Assembly (NCBI GenBank): GCA_030752795.1
Contig: JASMDM010000044.1
Location: 17,096-81,095, forward strand
Origin: SAR202 cluster bacterium
GTDB taxonomy: Bacteria > Chloroflexota > Dehalococcoidia > Lucifugimonadales > UBA1123
Direction of reading: 5' to 3'
DNA length: 64,000 bases
How positions within the stretch are numbered: the first letter of the stretch is position 1; each line of letters starts with the position of its first letter. The notes under the pieces are model-generated. The model saw nothing but the letters and a program-made list of their open reading frames with translations. It was not told the origin of the DNA and searched no databases. Positions 45,110-58,488 of the stretch are shown here, in pieces. The position numbers and the translations under genes were made by a program.

Positions 45110-48100
45110 CTACATCGTCAGGCGTTTGTACAGATACAGCAGGCGCTCGGGGAGGTCGTAGATGTTGTCCAGGACCTCGTAGCCCATGTCCGCACACATC
45201 GTCTTCAGGTAATCGTGGCCGTTCTTATCGACGGTGAGGCAGAACGCGTTGATGTTCTTGCGCCTGGCCTCGTCGAGCGCCATTTTGGTGTCGTGGACCG
45301 CGTACTCTTTCTCGACGCCCTCGCGGCTGTAACCCCTGTCTTGAGGCCTGCCGTCGCTGACCAGGAACAGTATCTTGGTCCTCGCGTCCTGCTTCTCGAG
45401 TTTGGTGGTAGCGTGGCGAATCGCGGGCCCCATCCTGGTGGCGTGGAGAGGCGCCACCCTGTCGATGCGCTTCTTGACGCGATCCGAGAAGTTCTCGTCG
45501 AGCTCCTTGATCGTGTAGAACTCGACGTTCTCGCGACCATAGCCTGAGAAGCCGTAAATGCCGTAGATGTCGCCGATCGCCTCTAGAGCGTTGACGATCA
45601 GAACGATCGCCTCTTTCTCGACATCGATGATGCGTTTGTATGATCGCCTGGCAGCCTCGCCGCGACGCGTTCGGAGCCACACCATGTACTCGACCGGATC
45701 GTCCGGGGCGTCCCAGTCGTCGGCGGTGCGCTTGCCTTCGTCGATGGCCTCGGCGGTGGATGCGCTGGTGTCGATCAGGAACGCCGCGGCAACGTCGCGC
45801 TGAACCTTGTTCCTGCGCCAGTAGAACTTGTCGCTCGGGCTGACGCCGGTCTTCATGTCGACCATCGCCTCGATGACCTCGTCGATGTCGATCTCCTCGC
45901 CGTCTTCGAGCTTGCGGACCCTTCGGAACATCTCCGGAACCATCATCTCGAACTGTCGCCTGATCTTCGTGACGAGCCCGCCGAATTCGTGGAGCGTGGC
46001 GCCGTAGAAGGCCGGGTCGCCCTCTTGCATCGTCTTTTGTCGCACGATGCACCATCGCGGCTTGTAGTCGTCGGCCCGGAAGTCCCACTCGTCGTACACG
46101 AACGTCTGAGGCTCGCTAGCCTCCAGTTCGGAACCTTCCTCGTCGACGTGCGTGAACGGCCCCTGGCCGAACTCAGGGTTGTCCGGCAGGTTCAGTCCCG
46201 CCTCTTTCAAGAGATTGTCAGCGAACAGGCCCTGCGAATTCTGGATGTCGCCCTGGACCGCCTGCAGGTCCAACTCGGCGCTGTTCTGTAGCAACTCTTC
46301 GAGCTGTTCTTGTGTGATCGGGTCGCCGGAGGCTTCGCCCACCGAATCCTGATCCTGCATTCTGAGTTGACTGAGCAGTTGAACGAGCTCGGGTTTGAAG
46401 TCGCCTCGGAAGTCGACGTCCTCGATGGATTCGTACTCCTGCTCCGAGTCCGGCCGCATCTCCATCTCCATGCCGTCGGCCATTTGTTGGAAGAGCTGCT
46501 CCATCTCGGCGGGGTCCATGTACTGGTCGTCTTGCTCTTCGTCCTCGCCAACGTCGACGTCTTCCCAGTCTTCCGGCGGCACTTCCTCGTTCGGGATGGC
46601 CGCGATGATGGCGTAGACGCGCAACGTCGCTTCGGCGGTGTCTTCGACGGTGGAGCCGGCGCTGAGCACTCGTTTCGCGATGGCCGCGATCTGCTTGGCT
46701 TGGTCCACGTACTCCAGCGGCGCCGGAATGGTTTTCTCTTGCTGCAGGCTTAGCCGCACCAAGAACTCGACCAGCGCCTCTCGGACAGGCAGAGACTGAA
46801 TCTCGGGCCGGCCCTCGTTCGAATCTTGTTGGACTCGGTCGTACGCGCTGCGGATGCCGGGGTACTCGTTCTTGACCGTGAAGTCGAGCCTGCCGTCTTC
46901 TACGACGGTGAACACGTCGAGCGCCAACTTGCGGTCTTCGAACATGTTGAAGAACCGTTGCATATCGGTGATCCAGGCGCGTTCGAGCCCTTCGCCTTCG
47001 ATTTCGCCTTGCTCAACGGATTGGGACGGCCGAGAGCGGCTCGCTTCAAGCTCGGCCCGGCGGTCGTTGAATATCTCGGACGGCCGGTCGAATTCGAAGT
47101 AGAAGCTTCCGAACTCAAGGTGGGCGACCTGGTGGGTCGAGACCACTTTGAACCACGAGAAGTTCTCGGGCTTGCTCTGATATCGGTCCACGATGCCCGG
47201 AACGAAGACGGTTGAGCCTTCAGTCGAGGGCGATTCGGCGGAAACCCAGCCGATGTTCTTATCGACAAGATCCCCGGACGCTGCGAGCTTGATTTCGGCG
47301 CCCGCCAGAGCACGGCAGTACATTTCCATGACCGGCTTGATGTGGTCGAACTCCACGCCCGATGAGAGCGCGACAAGCGTCGCCTCGGAATGAGCCGATT
47401 CGATCTTGAAGTATGCTAGACCGCCGTCGGGGTTCTGTCGCAGCAGGTTGACTCCTTCGTCGAACCAACGCTCGACCTGAGTCATCGAAAGGCGGTCCAT
47501 GATTTGTGAACAGCCCTTGATGAACTCAGGGACAGCGACCGGCGACTCTTCCATGAGCGCTTCGGCCAGTGTCAGGATTCGCGCGTGGTGCTCTGAGCTG
47601 ACCTGCGACAACGCTTGCGAAGTCTCCAGCATCACGTTGGGGATGTTCGTGCCGCCGGCCTGGACCTGCCGCTCGGCGATCTTGAGGAACCGGAATCGCT
47701 GGTCCTCGCCGATCTTCGGCAACGCTTTCGCGCCGGACTCGAAGAAGCTCTTGACCTCTCGCCATCCGGAATCTACGAGGGCGGTCGCTAGGCCGATGAA
47801 AGCGGTCTTGTCTTCGCCGATGAGCGGGAAGATCTGCTGGCCCAGAGCGAGGCACTCGGCCGCCAGATCGTACGACCGGTGCGAAAGAGCGTCGAGGAAG
47901 CCGGCAAATCGCTCCAGCTCGGGGAACGAAAGGCTTTCCATCAGCGCGGGGCTGTACGCGAAGAACTTGCACGCGAGGGTGCTGGACTTCCAAGTGCCTT
48001 TGTAAAGGCTGCTGCCCAGCTTGGCCCAGCCCTCGATATGTCGGGAGCGAAGTTGGGCCATCGCCTCGGGGCTAGCCTCGAAGTACGCGGTGGCCAGGGT

Positions 48101-48394
48101 AGGGGACTCGCCGCAGAGCTCGGTGCCACATTCAGTCCATCGCATGAAGTAGTTGAACGGCATGTACGTCAGCACCTGAGGGCTGACGCGGTAGTACTGA
48201 GCCGCGGCCTCCCACGACCTGACGGTTTGCTCGGCAATCTTCAGCCCGGCCATCGCCCATTGGGCGACCGACTCTTCATCGAGGCTGGCCGGCATTTGCG
48301 CATGGGCTTTCTCGAACTCGTCGGTGACCGGCGCAGGAAACCGGCGGAAATGTTCCTGCATCTCTTCGAGTGTCGGCGGTCCTGTGTTTTCCAC
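45110..48394 (-). CDS. 1094-aa NorD/CbbO-like protein with C-terminal von Willebrand factor A (VWA) domain
   Basis: GTG start with AAGGAG 5 nt upstream, overlapping the Nudix stop. The C-terminal part reads ...AAAFLIDTSASTAE (MIDAS DxSxS)...ILFLVSDGRPQD.... The central part reads ...VVSTHQVAHLEFGSFYFEF, and there is a long acidic linker. Confidence 0.85.
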   Translation of the reverse strand: MENTGPPTLEEMQEHFRRFPAPVTDEFEKAHAQMPASLDEESVAQWAMAGLKIAEQTVRSWEAAAQYYRVSPQVLTYMPFNYFMRWTECGTELCGESPTLATAYFEASPEAMAQLRSRHIEGWAKLGSSLYKGTWKSSTLACKFFAYSPALMESLSFPELERFAGFLDALSHRSYDLAAECLALGQQIFPLIGEDKTAFIGLATALVDSGWREVKSFFESGAKALPKIGEDQRFRFLKIAERQVQAGGTNIPNVMLETSQALSQVSSEHHARILTLAEALMEESPVAVPEFIKGCSQIMDRLSMTQVERWFDEGVNLLRQNPDGGLAYFKIESAHSEATLVALSSGVEFDHIKPVMEMYCRALAGAEIKLAASGDLVDKNIGWVSAESPSTEGSTVFVPGIVDRYQSKPENFSWFKVVSTHQVAHLEFGSFYFEFDRPSEIFNDRRAELEASRSRPSQSVEQGEIEGEGLERAWITDMQRFFNMFEDRKLALDVFTVVEDGRLDFTVKNEYPGIRSAYDRVQQDSNEGRPEIQSLPVREALVEFLVRLSLQQEKTIPAPLEYVDQAKQIAAIAKRVLSAGSTVEDTAEATLRVYAIIAAIPNEEVPPEDWEDVDVGEDEEQDDQYMDPAEMEQLFQQMADGMEMEMRPDSEQEYESIEDVDFRGDFKPELVQLLSQLRMQDQDSVGEASGDPITQEQLEELLQNSAELDLQAVQGDIQNSQGLFADNLLKEAGLNLPDNPEFGQGPFTHVDEEGSELEASEPQTFVYDEWDFRADDYKPRWCIVRQKTMQEGDPAFYGATLHEFGGLVTKIRRQFEMMVPEMFRRVRKLEDGEEIDIDEVIEAMVDMKTGVSPSDKFYWRRNKVQRDVAAAFLIDTSASTAEAIDEGKRTADDWDAPDDPVEYMVWLRTRRGEAARRSYKRIIDVEKEAIVLIVNALEAIGDIYGIYGFSGYGRENVEFYTIKELDENFSDRVKKRIDRVAPLHATRMGPAIRHATTKLEKQDARTKILFLVSDGRPQDRGYSREGVEKEYAVHDTKMALDEARRKNINAFCLTVDKNGHDYLKTMCADMGYEVLDNIYDLPERLLYLYKRLTM

Positions 48395-54199: not shown

Positions 54200-54373
54200 C
54201 TCCGAAGATCCGTCACGACGAACATCGCCGGACCGGCATCCACTTTCCCGGTACGCAACATCATGGATATCCGGCGCCGAAGTGCGATTCGTGAATCTAT
54301 TCTAAGAACGCCGCATCCGATATAATGAGGTCCAACTCAGTCGGACCCACATAGAAAACCGGTGGAGGAATCG

Positions 54374-54700
54374 ATGGCACACCCTATTGTAGTTACCGAC
54401 GCGAATTTTGAGGAAGAAGTTGCTGGGTCCGATACGCTCGTCGTGGTGGACTTCTGGGCCGAGTGGTGTGGTCCCTGCAAGATGATCGCACCCATCGTCG
54501 AGCAACTCGCTGACGAGTACGACGGCAAAGTCAAATTCGCGAAACTCGATGTTGACTCGAACCCGCAAACCGCGATGAACTTCGGCATTCGCGGCATCCC
54601 GGCCCTTCTGATCTTCAACGACGGCAAGCCCGTTGACACGGTCGTCGGCGCGGTGCCCAAGTCCGTGCTCAAAAAACGGGTCGACGCCGCGATCTCTTAG
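54374..54700 (+). CDS. trxA: thioredoxin
   Basis: MAHPIVVTDANFEEEV...VVDFWAEWCGPCKMIAP...GIRGIPALLIF. GGAGG lies 5 nt upstream of ATG 54374. Confidence 0.95.
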   Translation: MAHPIVVTDANFEEEVAGSDTLVVVDFWAEWCGPCKMIAPIVEQLADEYDGKVKFAKLDVDSNPQTAMNFGIRGIPALLIFNDGKPVDTVVGAVPKSVLKKRVDAAIS

Positions 54701-54919
54701 GCGCCTGACGGCGGGGCAACCCAAGGACAAAGACCCGCCGGAATCGCTTGCCTGAACACAACGAGATATAGCCGACCTCGCGCTTTGTGCGCTAGGCCGG
54801 TAGTCTTGCCCGAAATCTTCGGCTCGTCATCCGTTCGCGGTGTCGGGTCGGCGAAACTTCGCGACCGCGTGGCATCAAGATCGGTGTCCGCGGATTGGGA
54901 ACCGATCGAAGTTGCACAT

Positions 54920-55017
54920 GGGAGCGGATGGGGCCTGGTGGCTCCTGCGGTCTTCAAAACCGTTGGCGGCAACCCTGCGGTTGGCGCGGTGGGTTCGACT
55001 CCCTCTCGCTCCCGCCA
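54920..55017 (+). tRNA. selC: tRNA-Sec (anticodon UCA)
   Basis: GGGAGCGG-AU-GGGGCC-UGGU-GGCUCC-U-GCGGU-CUUCAAA-ACCGU-[long variable arm GGCGGCAACC-CUGC-GGUUGGCGC]-..GGG-UUCGACU-CCC..-UCGCUCCC-G-CCA. Hand folding gives an 8-bp acceptor stem, a 6-bp D stem with a 4-nt loop, a 7-nt anticodon loop with UCA at 54954-54956, a variable arm of about 25 nt, and an encoded CCA. These are the bacterial tRNA-Sec hallmarks. Confidence 0.9.
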
Positions 55018-55320
55018 CCCGTGTGCCCTGAACCGCGCCCCTCAATATTGGCTACGATTGATGATCGCCGCGCCTAACCGTGAGTGATCCCGCTCCCCCG
55101 ACCGTGCGTCCCATCATGTTCCGTCTTTCAACGCGCTGGGTAATATCCCACACCGGACAGTTTGTCGCCACACGTCGGCAGATTACTGCCGTGAGTTCGG
55201 CGGTGAACCATGGTTTCCCAAGCCTGTTGTCGGTTAAATATTGATATGGGAACTTGCTCACGCTAGCGTTTCTGATTTATCAATTCCCGAGTCGCGGTGG
55301 CTCGGTTGGGAGATCGCAGG

Positions 55321-55617
55321 ATGGTCGAATTTTCGACGACTGAACGGGCGGACAGTGCCAGCGAGCATTTCACGGCTCTGAAGAAATACGCGAACCGCGT
55401 GGTATTGGAGGGTCAGACGCTCTCGGAGGCCGAGGCGGAAGATAAAGAAGCTCGATTGCAGGAAGTTCGCGAGTTCGGCGACAGATACGGATTCTCGGAC
55501 AAAGACGTGGTCAAGCTGATCTTCGGCAGGATTTTCAGCGACCGCAAACAGTGCGGATGCCCGACGTGTCGTGCCCGTCGCCAAATGCGCATCGACAAAG
55601 CGGGCAGGGGAGCGTAG
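55321..55617 (+). CDS. hypothetical protein (98 aa) with C-terminal CGCPTC motif
   Basis: GGGAGA lies 7-8 nt upstream of ATG 55321. MVEFSTTERADSASEHFTALKKYANRVVLEGQTLSEAEAEDKEARLQEVREFG...KQCGCPTCRARRQ. A strong terminator follows. No family recognised. Confidence 0.45.
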   Translation: MVEFSTTERADSASEHFTALKKYANRVVLEGQTLSEAEAEDKEARLQEVREFGDRYGFSDKDVVKLIFGRIFSDRKQCGCPTCRARRQMRIDKAGRGA

Positions 55618-55691
55618 TCCGACTACGCGGAGAATGACCTGGCTCGCGCGAGCGCCACGGCAGTTCTCAGGCCGTGCACGAAACAACAAAC

Positions 55692-55722
55692 GAAAAGGGA
55701 CGGTCTCGCGACCGTCCCTTTT
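55692..55722. terminator. bidirectional rho-independent terminator
   Basis: AAAAGGGACGGTC-tcgc-GACCGTCCCTTTTT, lying between convergent genes 55321..55617 (+) and 55744..56286 (-). Confidence 0.75.
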
Positions 55723-55743
55723 TGAGTCTCCGAATTGGCTCGT

Positions 55744-56286
55744 TTAGCCCTGAGTCAGCAGTATCCCGAGGACCTCAGGAGCGGCTTGGGTGGCCCTTTC
55801 TCGAAGGCCGTCGGCGTCCAGGCTGCCCAGAGGGTGCGGAAGCACCACGTACGGGTAGTCTGGGATTCCGCCAAGCTTCGCCATGGCCTCGGCACTGTTA
55901 GCGAATGGCTCGGTGCAAATCACTGCCGTCGGCAAGCCTTTGCGCTCGAAGGTGATTCCGTCGTGCACACTGCACGACGAGCAGGACCCTCAATCGCCCG
56001 ATGCGGTAATGATTACGTCACACTCCTTCGCCATCTCCTCGATGATCGGAGCGGGACACGGTCGCGAGGCGTTGCCCTTGTTGCGCTCGACGACGGTTTT
56101 GAAGCTGTAGCTGTCTGCCAGCACTTCACTGATCGCGGTCAGCAACTTTTCCGAATTGAGTTTGCCGTTGGCCAACAAGCCGACGACTTTGCCGTCCAGC
56201 GTGGTCGGGCGCTCGGCAACGACCGCGTGAGCAGGTATCGGCTGCACCGTAGGGTCGAGCACTCCCAACTTGGTTGCGATTACCAT
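55744..56286 (-). CDS. U-G-S-C motif selenoprotein (180 aa; TGA at 55990-55992 read as Sec); function unknown
   Basis: Track ORFs 55990..56286 and 55744..55968 share one frame. The joined sequence is MVIATKLGVLDPTV...AKECDVIITASGD-U-GSCSSCSVHDGITFERKGLPTAVICTEPF...LGILLTQG. GGGAGG lies 7 nt upstream of ATG 56286. A SECIS hairpin starts 11 nt after the UGA. selC, selA and selD are all in this window. Confidence 0.85.
55960..55978 (-). promoter_or_regulatory. SECIS element (mini stem-loop) of the UGSC selenoprotein mRNA
   Basis: UGA followed by 11 nt (GGGUCCUGCUC), then GUCGUGCA-GUG-UGCACGAC. This is a perfect 8-bp stem with a G/U-containing apical loop, matching the spacing of the minimal E. 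coli fdhF SECIS. Confidence 0.65.
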
Positions 56287-56328
56287 AAACGAACCTCCCT
56301 TTCGGTCGCGAGACCTTTCACCCCTTGG

Positions 56329-57360
56329 TTATCCCTGGACCCTCTTGGTCACCGACTGAGAGCCGGCGCCTGCGCCCCACAGCGGTATTATACTCGAAAA
56401 CGCGCCAGCCGCACCGCCGGCCACCAATATCGTGATGTTGTCCAGCTCGGACGCCACCGGAACCATCCTTGACGATCCATCGGCGTTGGGCGGCACGACC
56501 TCGCCGGCTGCGCGCCAGTCCGCGTCAGACCGCTGGGACGTTTCGAACAAGAACTGTCGCACCTGGGCCTTCGACCAGCCCGCCGCTTTGATGTTGCCGA
56601 TGTGCTCCGGGCACAACACGGCGACGAGCTCGTTTTGCGTCGGACCCACCGAGAACATCGCGTCTCGGAAACTTACCAGAATCTCCTCCGGCGCCTGTGC
56701 GTGATGGTTGGCAACTTGAGTGCCCGACAACGCTGCGAATATCGACACGGTGCTGTCGCCGGCATCGAAGCCGCGAGTCGCGTGCATGGGCTCCCACGGA
56801 TTGACGTCGTCCGCTTCGGCCATGCACCAAGAGAACTTGCCCGGATGCCCGAGCGTCGCCTTGTCGATTTCACCGGAAGACGAGCCCGTGGCGTTGATGA
56901 TGATGAGCCTGATCGCTCGACCGATCGTCGCGTTGGCCCGATGCCCGGGACCGAACACGCTCACGCCCGAATTGATGCCGATCTCTTTCGCGATGGGACC
57001 GCTGACCACAGTGAGCACGGCGGCGCCCATCGTCGACGCCGTGATGGCGTGGAGGTTGAACTCCGGCTCGCACATGGCTTCGACGGCGGTCACGATGACC
57101 GGAAAGTACTCGGGCAGACAACCAGCCATGACCGCGTTGACGGCGATCTTCTCCGCCGTGATCACGCGGCCCTTGGTCGGCTCGGTTCCCACGATCTCGG
57201 ACGGCGATCGACCGGCGGCGGCCAGACATGCCAGCACGCGATCGGGCGTCGGCGGCGTGATGGGCAAGCCGTCCGTCCAACCTCTTCGCAGGTACTCCTC
57301 GGCTATCTCCGACTCTTCGTCGAATTCCAATATCGCTGAAGTCAAATTAGCGCCTGTCAT
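56329..57360 (-). CDS. conserved hypothetical protein (343 aa), probably co-transcribed upstream partner of the UGSC selenoprotein
   Basis: GGAGG lies 5 nt upstream of ATG 57360. MTGANLTSAILEFDEESEIAEEYLRRGWTDGLPITPPTPDRVLACL...AVNAVMAGCLPEYFPVIVTAVEAM.... It ends 42 nt before the UGSC start. Composition is coding-like, but I recognise no family. Confidence 0.75.
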   Translation of the reverse strand: MTGANLTSAILEFDEESEIAEEYLRRGWTDGLPITPPTPDRVLACLAAAGRSPSEIVGTEPTKGRVITAEKIAVNAVMAGCLPEYFPVIVTAVEAMCEPEFNLHAITASTMGAAVLTVVSGPIAKEIGINSGVSVFGPGHRANATIGRAIRLIIINATGSSSGEIDKATLGHPGKFSWCMAEADDVNPWEPMHATRGFDAGDSTVSIFAALSGTQVANHHAQAPEEILVSFRDAMFSVGPTQNELVAVLCPEHIGNIKAAGWSKAQVRQFLFETSQRSDADWRAAGEVVPPNADGSSRMVPVASELDNITILVAGGAAGAFSSIIPLWGAGAGSQSVTKRVQG

Positions 57361-57576
57361 CCTACCCTCCACGTTCGCAACGCAGCCGTTGCAGATTGGC
57401 TGGTAATCTAGACCACAGCCTCAATAATAGCAAGTTCGACGAACCCTGCAACTCGGAAATTTCGTTTGAGAGGGCCAATACTGCCGTCCGGTTTATGACT
57501 GGCTGCATCGTGCCCTATGCTAAAATTGCCTCGAACAACAGCTCAAGGCGACTCACGACTCCCGGGAGACGATTGT

Positions 57577-58488
57577 ATGACCCAACAGGAAGCTAGGCCC
57601 AGGTTCGAGTCGGTGCCAACTGCCGCTTCCGATTCACCACCGAAATTCGCCCATCCGTCTGAAAAGGAATTCGCGCAGATATTGGACTTCTACGGATTGC
57701 GATGGTCGTACGAACCGTACTCGTTCCCGCTTCGTTGGGACGGCGACGCGATCGCGGAAATGCTGACGCCCGATTTCTACCTGCACGACCTCGACCTGTA
57801 CCTCGAATTGACCACGATGAAGCAGAGCCTGGTCACGCAGAAGAACCGGAAGATCAGACGGATTCGAGAGATATATCCGGATATCAACATTCGGCTGCTC
57901 TACAGGAAAGACTTCCACCGGCTGCTGGCCAAATTCGGATTCGGACCGTTGGCCGAGTCTGGCGTCCCGGGAATCAACAAGGTTCTTCTATCCGACGGGC
58001 AAGTCCAGCAGAAGGTTGACGAGCTCGGCAAAGCGCTGTCGAAAGACTACGCTCAAAAGCAGCCGGTCCTGGTCGGTGTGCAGCGAGGCATGGTGTGCTT
58101 CATGGCGGACCTGATGCGAAAGATCACGCTGCCCGTCATGATGGACTTCATGTCGATCTCGCACTATCGCGGAGCCGACGGCGCCGGTCTCCGGATCACG
58201 AAGGACTTGGACATCGACCTGTACGGCCACGACGTCGTTTTGGTCGAGGACATCGTCGACACCGGCATGACGCTGAACTACCTGTTGGGCCATCTACGGT
58301 CAAAAGGGGCGGCGTCGGTCGAGGTGTGCACGCTCCTGGACAAACGAGCCCGTCGCATCGTGGACGTGCCGATAAAGTACGTGGGCTTCGAGGTCCCGGA
58401 CGAGTTCCTGGTGGGGTACGGACTGGACTATCAGGAGAAGTACCGGAACCTGCCGTTCATTGGAGTGCTGCGGCCCGAGGGCGGGTAG
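57577..58488 (+). CDS. hpt: hypoxanthine phosphoribosyltransferase with a roughly 140-aa N-terminal extension of unknown function
   Basis: The C-terminal roughly 180 aa read ...VLVGVQRGMVCFMADLMR...VVLVEDIVDTGMTLNYL (PRPP loop)...VGYGLDYQEKYRNLPFIGVL. The N-terminal part is MTQQEARPRF...EFAQILDFYGLRWSYEPYSFPL...LTPDFYLHDLDLYLELTTMKQ.... Confidence 0.85.
   Translation: MTQQEARPRFESVPTAASDSPPKFAHPSEKEFAQILDFYGLRWSYEPYSFPLRWDGDAIAEMLTPDFYLHDLDLYLELTTMKQSLVTQKNRKIRRIREIYPDINIRLLYRKDFHRLLAKFGFGPLAESGVPGINKVLLSDGQVQQKVDELGKALSKDYAQKQPVLVGVQRGMVCFMADLMRKITLPVMMDFMSISHYRGADGAGLRITKDLDIDLYGHDVVLVEDIVDTGMTLNYLLGHLRSKGAASVEVCTLLDKRARRIVDVPIKYVGFEVPDEFLVGYGLDYQEKYRNLPFIGVLRPEGG

Follow-up and report, generated by a model that had tools for sequence, protein, structure and literature searches.

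The partner–UGSC operon

The stretch of DNA analysed here, referred to as the window, comprises 64,000 nucleotides (nt) of a SAR202 cluster bacterium (contig JASMDM010000044.1) and is described with regard to two adjacent genes on its minus strand. The downstream gene encodes a UGSC selenoprotein with selenocysteine (Sec, U) at position 99, and the upstream gene encodes a 343-residue protein, termed the partner. The two genes are almost constantly adjacent or fused in other genomes and thioredoxin-type domains are often joined to them, and the pair is therefore probably a two-part selenium-dependent reductase. The locus is laid out as follows, with UGSC and its selenocysteine insertion sequence (SECIS) listed after the partner, and open reading frames abbreviated as ORFs.

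56329–57360, minus strand: partner gene, 343 aa from the ATG at 57360 to the stop at 56329 (ORF call)
56287–56328, minus strand: intergenic spacer of 42 nt, holding the UGSC ribosome-binding site AAGGGAGG
55744–56286, minus strand: UGSC selenoprotein gene, 180 aa including Sec99 (translation, NF041046, PF24696)
55990–55992, minus strand: Sec UGA, an in-frame TGA read within the UGSC gene
55959–55979, minus strand: SECIS hairpin, beginning 10 to 13 nt after the UGA, with the apical loop AGUGU
55693–55722, minus strand: intrinsic terminator, 13-bp stem with flanking A-run and T-run
54920–55017, plus strand: tRNA-Sec (selC), 98 nt, anticodon TCA (ARAGORN)
54374–54700, plus strand: trxA (ORF 54362–54700 with an ATG at 54374; TIGR01068)
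55297/55321–55617, plus strand: small ORF with a CGCPTC motif (ORF call only)

An initial annotation of the window had listed trxA, the tRNA-Sec, the small ORF, UGSC, the 343-residue protein and two motifs within the latter (GWTDGLPITPPTP and NAVMAGCLPEYFP), and all of these are present at or near the places it gave. The ATG of the partner gene at 57360 has GGAGGG 6 nt upstream; an alternative GTG start at 57372 would give a protein of 347 aa. Partner residues are numbered here according to the 347-residue form, from which 4 is subtracted for the 343-residue protein. The latter is 100% identical to P0001, a 343-residue ‘hypothetical protein’ of a SAR202 metagenome-assembled genome (MAG).

The partner stop codon is separated from the UGSC ATG (56286) by exactly 42 nt, which include the ribosome-binding site of UGSC. 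The unit contains a single terminator, located 3′ of the UGSC stop codon and probably bidirectional, because an A-run and a T-run sit on either side of its stem. With a ribosome-binding site for each gene, a short gap and one terminator after UGSC, the pair makes up a bicistronic unit of its own, and the earlier suggestion that they are one operon was borne out.

UGSC and its selenocysteine codon

The downstream gene is a full member of the UGSC family. With U replaced by C, its product scored 149.2 bits against NF041046 (cutoff 125) and 197.9 bits against PF24696 (cutoff 25), the latter match covering profile positions 2–171 of 172. Read through the TGA at 55992–55990, the gene translates as ...ITASGD-U-GSCSSCSVHD..., and the Sec lies in an active-site loop of the form UxxCxxC (G97-D98-U99-G100-S101-C102-S103-S104-C105). 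The third Cys position of this motif is occupied in 99 of 121 paired UGSC loci and is not universal.

The UGA is a true Sec codon, not an error, because the hairpin downstream of it is stable and supported by covariation. The hairpin has a predicted energy of −24.2 kcal/mol (z = −3.6). Its covariation was assessed by aligning the corresponding 48-nt segment of 59 distinct homologs, which had been retrieved via the partner and were thus unselected for the hairpin. Five base pairs of the core are paired in 59/59 homologs, three of them with compensatory double changes. Changes on both sides of a pair occur in 16 cells of the alignment, compared with 3.0 expected, and none of 500 shuffles reached the observed value. 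In the apical loop the G and U are invariant, and it is these bases that SelB recognises in bacterial SECIS elements. The U position is encoded by TGA in 66 of the 67 genome loci with UGSC, the remaining one (L079, from a Rhizobiaceae MAG) having Cys. The UGSC loci collected from metagenomes all have Sec, but these were picked with a pattern that contains TGA.

UGSC is a small Sec protein common in oceans and soils. It is not a new selenoprotein, as it has been catalogued since 2007–2008 as the ‘UGSC-containing protein’ (PMC1976440, PMC2398784). It was reported there without a known function, with a guessed thioredoxin-like fold and as commoner in non-marine aquatic samples (PMC2398784, PMC1976440). 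A count in the Global Ocean Sampling (GOS) data gave 255 Sec forms versus 21 Cys forms, and the same paper of 2008 mentions an unidentified ‘UGSC/Unknown_1 fusion’ (PMC2398784). A review of 2026 still places UGSC among the uncharacterised families (PMC13188914).

Database entries for UGSC and its fusions suffer from systematic mis-annotation, most of them ending at the UGA. Among the public entries P0126–P0145, P0355–P0409, P0155, P0168 and P0222, many for UGSC are N-terminal fragments of 98 aa, and those for partner–UGSC fusions stop at the UGA. P0121 has a W at the Sec position.

Linkage of the partner and UGSC across lineages

The co-occurrence of UGSC with the 343-residue protein was examined from both search directions, and the linkage is conserved in each, with frequent fusion in addition; this is the reverse of the outcome that the initial annotation had named as refuting its proposal. 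A genome scan with a partner profile yielded 80 loci. Those in Chloroflexota belong to Dehalococcoidia/SAR202, Ktedonobacteria and Anaerolineae, and the others to Methylomirabilota/Rokubacteria, Poribacteria, Binatia, SAR324, Desulfobulbaceae, alpha-, beta- and gamma-proteobacteria, and actinomycetes. Searches with tblastn, and with a hidden Markov model against six-frame translations, located UGSC in 67 of the 80. In 63 of these it is the next gene downstream, in the same orientation; it is directly upstream in one, adjacent but convergent in two and 2.5 kb away in one. Three of the 13 partner loci without UGSC are on contigs that end just past the partner, and the other ten are genuine UGSC-less paralogs.

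The opposite search used a DNA pattern (TGAGGNNNNTGYNNNNNNNGCAGTNTGCNNGA) derived from the Sec codon and SECIS, and hence free of partner information, to scan metagenomes. It returned 120 loci, 117 of them within UGSC genes, and the partner lies directly upstream on the same strand in 86 of the 117. As 20 loci have less than 700 nt of upstream sequence and so are not evaluable, this corresponds to 86 of ~97 evaluable loci. At least two of the remaining 11 carry the partner in another arrangement, with the order reversed in L105 and one gene in between in L119. The juxtaposition of partner and UGSC is far beyond chance.

Cys forms of UGSC also adjoin a partner homolog, in 4/4 loci examined. Examples are Nonomuraea sediminis (L201) and the L205/L206 and P0349 loci, in which UGSC precedes the partner with overlapping codons. 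At the Cys-form loci L202/L203 (4455–6922), insertion sequence elements (rve and HTH_Tnp_1 transposases) lie between partner and UGSC and split the pair. The two genes overlap in L014, L029, L201 and L205. L014 and L029, with a gap of 0, were considered as fusions and rejected, as the overlapping genes are in different frames.

True fusions were sought among the best 150 cluster representatives of the partner family, of which the 61 with at least 400 aa were scanned against Pfam. A UGSC domain was found in 34, AhpC-TSA or Redoxin in six and FeThRed_B in two. In-frame fusions of partner and UGSC occur in both orders. In P0155 the partner is followed by the N-terminal half of UGSC, ending ...AIGD where the UGA stopped the gene caller, whereas in P0173, P0179 and P0208 the partner is preceded by the half of UGSC that follows Sec. 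In P0209 a whole UGSC of the Cys type precedes the partner. Such ‘Rosetta stone’ fusions argue that the two proteins very likely act as one physical unit.

No conserved third gene was found when the ORFs of 81 loci were clustered, a procedure that relied on a crude ORF caller and was misled by ORFs called antisense to the split UGSC gene. The neighbours are variable, none occurring in more than 14 loci. They include a short-chain dehydrogenase/reductase, luciferase-like monooxygenase, NHL propeller, flavin mononucleotide-dependent hydroxy-acid dehydrogenase, major facilitator superfamily transporter and CoA-transferase from the clustering, and also RidA, M20 peptidase, amidohydrolases, TauD, aminotransferase, transporters and LysR/IclR regulators. 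One may speculate that they hint at the breakdown of small organic compounds of nitrogen or sulfur.

Thioredoxin-type and other redox modules

The idea that thioredoxin recycles the pair, put forward in the initial annotation, gains independent support from a Nonomuraea operon and from fusions to thioredoxin-fold and FeThRed_B domains. In Nonomuraea, a thioredoxin (100 aa), the partner (340 aa) and UGSC are encoded in that order with overlapping stop and start codons. More generally, 29 of the 200 loci collected encode, immediately before the partner, a domain of ~120–160 aa that has a conserved C-[PE]-T-C motif and matches Redoxin, AhpC-TSA, Thioredoxin_2 or Thioredoxin_8. It is fused in frame to the N terminus of the partner in 26 of the 29, and UGSC follows downstream in all but one. 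Such fusion occurs in 21 of the 50 UGSC-anchored metagenome modules with enough upstream sequence, but in only 5 of 79 loci of the genome set, in which the subfamily of the window is over-represented.

The linker between the thioredoxin-like domain and the partner has a conserved [RK]PGCGS motif (L061, L073, L075, L076, L089, L095, L102 and others). Its C-G-S is reminiscent of the U-G-S in the active-site loop of UGSC; the motif may act as a swinging-arm cysteine or imitate that loop.

The two representatives with FeThRed_B, the catalytic subunit domain of ferredoxin:thioredoxin reductase (FTR), carry it at the C terminus of the partner, and P0208 has the order UGSC–partner–FTR (E = 1.4e-16). 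This fusion implies that electrons from ferredoxin can enter the same disulfide or selenenylsulfide chemistry. Still other members have an extra CxxC domain of ~80–100 aa, which is found on the partner in P0164 (residues 1–100) and at the C termini of P0190, P0259 and P0271, and a domain of the same type is found on UGSC in P0128 (residues ~180–257). Two of five tested CxxC domains weakly matched the NifU domain (PF01106) with E-values of 7e-4 and 0.015, at 20 bits versus a threshold of 27. Every accessory module is a dithiol or Fe-S redox element. The CxxC domain may be the ‘Unknown_1’ of 2008, which could otherwise be the partner.

The partner family

That the 343-residue protein could not be placed in any family was upheld. 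The partner matched no Pfam or NCBIfam model even at E ≤ 10, and a profile built from 40 homologs matched no Protein Data Bank (PDB) sequence at E ≤ 10. Its AlphaFold2 model is of good quality, with a predicted local distance difference test score (pLDDT) of 79 and a predicted template modelling score (pTM) of 0.83, and a Foldseek search of the PDB with this model returned nothing significant, the best match being cyanuric acid hydrolase (E = 0.04; template modelling (TM) score 0.23). A Toblerone-fold cyclic amide hydrolase of the AtzD/barbiturase type was considered, as 5hy4, 6dhj and 6bum rank at the top, but their E-values are 0.04–0.3, with probabilities of at most 0.30, TM scores of 0.18–0.23, root-mean-square deviations of 11.5–15 Å and no sequence match. 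PrpD-type and GAPDH-type structural matches were discarded as too weak.

The family is large. At 90% identity a word-indexed search counted over 7,900 clusters, which is a lower bound; at 50% identity an exhaustive profile search gave 6,594 clusters with E ≤ 1e-3, 1,842 of them with E ≤ 1e-30. Conservation was analysed over 135 full-length members with 35–70% identity. At least 97% conserved are G31, D34, G35, L36, P37, P41, A77, V81, A83, G84, C85, G125, P126, R145, G151, R152, L156, N160, E186, W193, G201, G319 and W332. The invariant residues are D34, C85 (in a MAGC motif), R145, R152, N160, E186 and W193, and C183 is conserved at 93%. In sequence terms, the universal cysteine together with an aspartate, two arginines, an asparagine and a glutamate looks like the active site of an enzyme with an anionic ligand, and the partner is accordingly proposed to be a catalytic or substrate-binding subunit.

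The conserved polar residues, UGSC-less paralogs and tandem forms suggest that the partner is an enzyme in its own right. The UGSC-less paralogs retain both C85 and C183. One lies in L036 (5281–7035), directly after nitrile-hydratase-like genes that include an alpha subunit with a CTLCSC metal motif; UGSC-less paralogs are also found in L077, L047, L054, L070 and L010, and those of Poribacteria are shorter, at 315 aa. UGSC-less partners may use another reductant or substrate. Tandem duplication of the whole partner domain is seen in proteins of 709–741 aa (P0147, P0150, P0151, P0153, P0162, P0169 and P0287). In P0147, the sole tandem form that was read as sequence, both copies keep the xMAGC cysteine motif.

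The UGSC fold and its resemblance to selenoprotein B

The fold of UGSC was judged from an AlphaFold2 model of P0122, a Cys-form homolog that is 53% identical to the UGSC of the window. The model (pLDDT 89.9) is a five-stranded parallel α/β/α sandwich with the U/C residue at the N terminus of the helix spanning residues 100–115, after strand 3. Foldseek matched it to the C-terminal domain of NagZ, flavodoxins, WrbA, phosphotransferase system IIB, PurE and RpiB with E-values of 1e-4 to 1e-3. Since these are generic flavodoxin-like folds, the model argues against a thioredoxin fold. UGSC is thus predicted to have a flavodoxin-like α/β fold in which U99-x-x-C102 is located at a strand-to-helix crossover.

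When 30 diverse UGSC members were scanned with hmmscan, the sole recurrent foreign matches were to the selenoprotein B family. GrdB was matched by 10 of the 30 (best E = 7.6e-5), the general selenoprotein B model by four, GrdF by two, and GrdH and PrdB by one each. All of these matches align at profile positions 331–406 of 431, a region that we take to cover the Sec site of GrdB near residue 350. The loop of the window protein, U99-G-S-C102-S-S-C105, also matches the UxxCxxC motif reported after the Sec of GrdB, GrdF and GrdH (PMC6778437, citing Wagner 1999; PMC13188914). PF07355 (selenoprotein B) was not reported for the window UGSC at E ≤ 0.01. In a reverse profile search with the UGSC alignment, GrdB and PrdB were absent among the best 120 matches listed, all of which were UGSC; the resemblance to GrdB is therefore one of the forward scan alone. 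Altogether, the matches weakly suggest a remote relatedness of the Sec-bearing domain, not membership in the selenoprotein B family.

The local neighbourhood

The trxA and selC genes are on the strand opposite to the partner–UGSC operon, beyond the strong terminator. The trxA product scored 131.6 bits with TIGR01068 (cutoff 96.8) and 122 bits with PF00085, and has the active site WCGPC, within WAEWCGPCK. The tRNA-Sec is the sole tRNA in the window and is required in trans to decode the UGSC UGA, yet it lies outside the operon. Of the 200 loci, only L001 and L002, close relatives within SAR202/Dehalococcoidia, have trxA and selC next to the pair, and the trxA–selC adjacency is lineage-specific. 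A tRNA-Sec is found beside UGSC in four of the 200 related loci (L001, 8470–8567; L002, 7745–7843; L139, 434–529; L180, 1133–1226). For a single-copy gene, a tRNA-Sec within ~1 kb of UGSC in four loci besides the window looks, by impression, commoner than chance, but this may reflect only one lineage.

The small CGCPTC ORF matched no family and no thioredoxin fold. It has one weak homolog (30% identity), in the closest relative (L001), and was rejected as a thioredoxin-like element for want of both a fold match and conservation. The ORF (55297–55617, plus strand) converges on the UGSC terminator and may or may not be a real gene. Its CPTC resembles the C-P-T-C of the thioredoxin-like domains fused to partners, which may be a coincidence.

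The flanks contain housekeeping genes for aspartase/fumarase, S-adenosylmethionine decarboxylase, agmatinase, a hypoxanthine-guanine phosphoribosyltransferase (HGPRT) fusion, a methyltransferase, gamma-glutamyltransferase and, 3 kb from the pair, a NifS/IscS-type cysteine desulfurase. None of selA, selB, selD, suf, isc or grd/prd is among the genes scanned at 42–64 kb of the window. The HGPRT gene (57517–58488, plus strand; 323 aa) is divergent from the partner gene, and only its residues 156–318 form the HGPRTase domain (TIGR01203, 184 bits), the N-terminal ~150 residues matching no family. The largest unassigned ORF nearby is at 45110–48394 on the minus strand; it encodes 1,094 aa and has no NCBIfam match at E ≤ 1e-5.

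A proposed two-subunit selenocysteine-dependent reductase

From the gene linkage, fusions and structural models, we consider it probable that the partner and UGSC are two subunits of one Sec-dependent, thioredoxin-fed selenol/thiol reductase. In the proposed mechanism, the partner would bind a small-molecule substrate, probably anionic, at a site formed by C85, R145, R152, N160 and E186. Sec99 of UGSC would enter this site as nucleophile or reductant, much as Sec is used in the selenoprotein B of glycine and proline reductases. The reaction would leave a selenenylsulfide between Sec99 and either C102 or a cysteine of the partner, which would be reduced by a thioredoxin-fold protein that other lineages encode as a fused domain or in the same operon. 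In the SAR202 genome, the reductant would presumably be free TrxA, possibly the copy located 1 kb away, which is a plausible candidate. In some lineages an FTR-like domain would carry out the reducing step.

Several points weigh against this proposal. Its support comes throughout from comparative genomics and structure prediction. The partner has no similarity to GrdE or PrdA, nor is a pyruvoyl group indicated, and the window UGSC falls far under the selenoprotein B cutoffs (20.3 versus 602 bits for TIGR01917 and 16 versus 65.45 bits for TIGR01918). The second cysteine of UxxCxxC (C105) is not universal, the subfamily to which the window belongs has no fused thioredoxin domain, and the trxA of the window is an ordinary housekeeping type in a separate transcription unit. 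Furthermore, with ten partner loci lacking UGSC, Sec is not indispensable for the chemistry of the partner fold in general.

The main rival is that UGSC is solely a carrier: a dedicated electron carrier or ‘selenoredoxin’ that stays off the substrate, with the partner acting as a Cys-dependent reductase like MsrA/B, ArsC or peroxiredoxin. C85, with C183, would be oxidised in each turnover and re-reduced by UGSC, which in turn would be reduced by thioredoxin. We regard such a relay as a real but lesser possibility. It would suit the universal C85 and largely conserved C183, both of which the UGSC-less paralogs keep as if the partner chemistry were self-contained, and the fold of UGSC is that of a generic flavodoxin-like redox carrier. 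Fusions to thioredoxin, FTR and NifU-like domains would suit any dithiol relay. In addition, C105 of UGSC is absent in 8 of 9 cases where the partner has lost C183 (to Val), compared with 14 of 112 where C183 is present, but a single clade (Methylomirabilota/Rokubacteria) accounts for nearly all of this correlation, which may therefore reflect one event. Against the relay, Sec is preferred to Cys to an extreme degree, also in the published counts (PMC2398784), which is more typical of a catalytic nucleophile than of a simple carrier, and the sole remote homologs of UGSC are selenoprotein B subunits, which attack substrates. Closer to the known enzymes, the pair might be a true homolog of the B components of glycine, sarcosine, betaine or D-proline reductase. 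UGSC would then be a minimal GrdB/PrdB, and the partner an analogue of GrdE/PrdA that cleaves itself at a cysteine to yield a pyruvoyl group, on which the amine forms a Schiff base before Sec cleaves the C–N bond. The recurrent weak matches of UGSC to GrdB, GrdF, GrdH and PrdB and its UxxCxxC motif (PMC6778437) fit this proposal. So do the invariant C85 within a conserved A-G-C motif, the amino-acid and amine catabolic neighbours in several loci (RidA, M20 peptidase, amidohydrolases, TauD and aminotransferase) and the thioredoxin linkage, as grd operons also carry trx genes. It nevertheless appears unlikely. The partner matches neither PF09338 (Gly_reductase) nor any Grd/Prd model even at E ≤ 10, the curated cutoffs are missed widely, and grdA, grdC and grdD were not seen in the scanned flanks or recurrent neighbour clusters. 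Moreover, the AlphaFold2 model places C85 between two helices, whereas a strand-turn is the usual setting of self-processing sites, and instead of Stickland fermenters the pair is hosted mainly by aerobic SAR202, Burkholderiales and actinomycetes.

The remaining explanations are weaker still. The initial annotation had treated trxA, selC, the small CGCPTC ORF, UGSC and the partner as one neighbourhood, which as a co-evolved five-gene selenium module is now very improbable. All five features do lie inside 3 kb, the trxA–selC–UGSC arrangement recurs in L001 and L002, and L139 and L180 also have a tRNA-Sec by UGSC. However, the features are on opposite strands with the 13-bp-stem terminator between them, trxA and selC are missing from the other ~195 related loci, and the rest of the window's flanks is housekeeping. 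The small ORF, without a family and with its single weak homolog, drops out as a member, and the comparative data largely refute the module as a whole. Least probable of all, in our view, is that the pair reduces no metabolite and instead moves sulfur or selenium, as a persulfide/perselenide relay or in the assembly of Fe-S or selenium cofactors. The CxxC domains fused to partner or UGSC are weakly NifU-like, the cysteine desulfurase is close by, and the FTR-like domain present in family fusions is an Fe-S protein. The NifU matches, on the other hand, are under the Pfam threshold, the desulfurase was not seen adjacent in the related loci and forms no cluster among recurrent neighbours, and the genes scanned at 42–64 kb include no selD, selA, selB, suf or isc. 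Redox catalysis is also the typical role of a genetically encoded Sec that has a SECIS and lies in a UxxC loop. A pyruvoyl Grd/Prd mechanism, sulfur or selenium trafficking and the five-gene module are each less likely than the two-subunit reductase.

Taking the two-subunit reductase a step further, the pair could tentatively be the core of a widespread and so far unrecognised class of two-subunit selenoenzymes. With thioredoxin or ferredoxin as the electron source, a catalytic subunit of new fold would reductively cleave a bond (C–N, C–S or C–O) in a dissolved organic compound, in the manner of Grd/Prd, and would do so in aerobic bacteria of the sea, fresh water and soil, SAR202 among them. 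If so, this would explain both why UGSC ranks with the most abundant selenoproteins of aquatic samples and why a Cys form hardly ever replaces it. If SAR202 and other abundant heterotrophs do use the enzyme for a new reductive reaction, it would matter for how much selenium is needed and for how dissolved organic matter is turned over. In practical terms, UGSC passes from an orphan to an experimentally tractable system with a near-obligate partner from an unannotated family of ~6,600 clusters. The analysis names the proteins to co-express, the residues to mutate (U99, C102 and C85 of the partner) and the likely reductant, and points to a cultured host of the Cys form, Nonomuraea sediminis. Other cultured hosts are Sheuella amnicola (L043) and, as reported, Hyphomonas neptunium (PMC1976440).

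Comparison with known systems

The selenoprotein of the window does not differ from the described UGSC family (NF041046, PF24696), with which it shares the U-G-S-C, the TGA with SECIS and a length of ~180 aa. The searchable literature yielded no paper on the near-obligate pairing or fusion of UGSC with a large unannotated family, on the wiring of the pair to thioredoxin, FTR and NifU-like modules, or on a flavodoxin-like rather than thioredoxin-like fold of UGSC. The closest prior statement is the remark of 2008 on a ‘UGSC/Unknown_1’ fusion, and the fold that was guessed to be thioredoxin-like in that year (PMC2398784) is flavodoxin-like in the model used here.

FeThRed_B (PF02943), the catalytic subunit of ferredoxin:thioredoxin reductase, is found as a domain on some partners, such as P0208, but not on the gene of the window. 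In these fusions we infer that it replaces free thioredoxin instead of reducing it.

Thiol relays that end in a thioredoxin-fold CxxC are known from MsrA/B–thioredoxin fusions, thioredoxin-coupled ArsC and 3′-phosphoadenosine-5′-phosphosulfate (PAPS) reductase, which are enzymes with an essential cysteine and are sometimes fused to the CxxC protein. The UGSC–partner system would be similar in having a relay that ends in a sometimes fused thioredoxin-fold CxxC. It differs in that a selenoprotein is added to the relay, and the partner has no sequence or structural similarity to these enzymes.

The GrdB/F/H with GrdE/G/I and PrdB with PrdA systems offer the nearest parallel, as in each of them a Sec subunit with UxxC(xxC) is encoded beside a larger subunit and electron supply is linked to thioredoxin. 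The differences are nonetheless considerable. UGSC has 180 aa compared with ~430 for GrdB and ~240 for PrdB, the partner is not homologous to GrdE or PrdA and shows no indication of a pyruvoyl cofactor, and GrdA, GrdC, GrdD and PrdC were not seen among the window genes at 42–64 kb or the recurrent neighbours. The hosts of the UGSC–partner pair are, in addition, mostly aerobes. Taken together, the pair is best read as a Sec-dependent, thioredoxin-coupled reductase that is remotely related to the selenoprotein B systems and works with a non-homologous catalytic partner.

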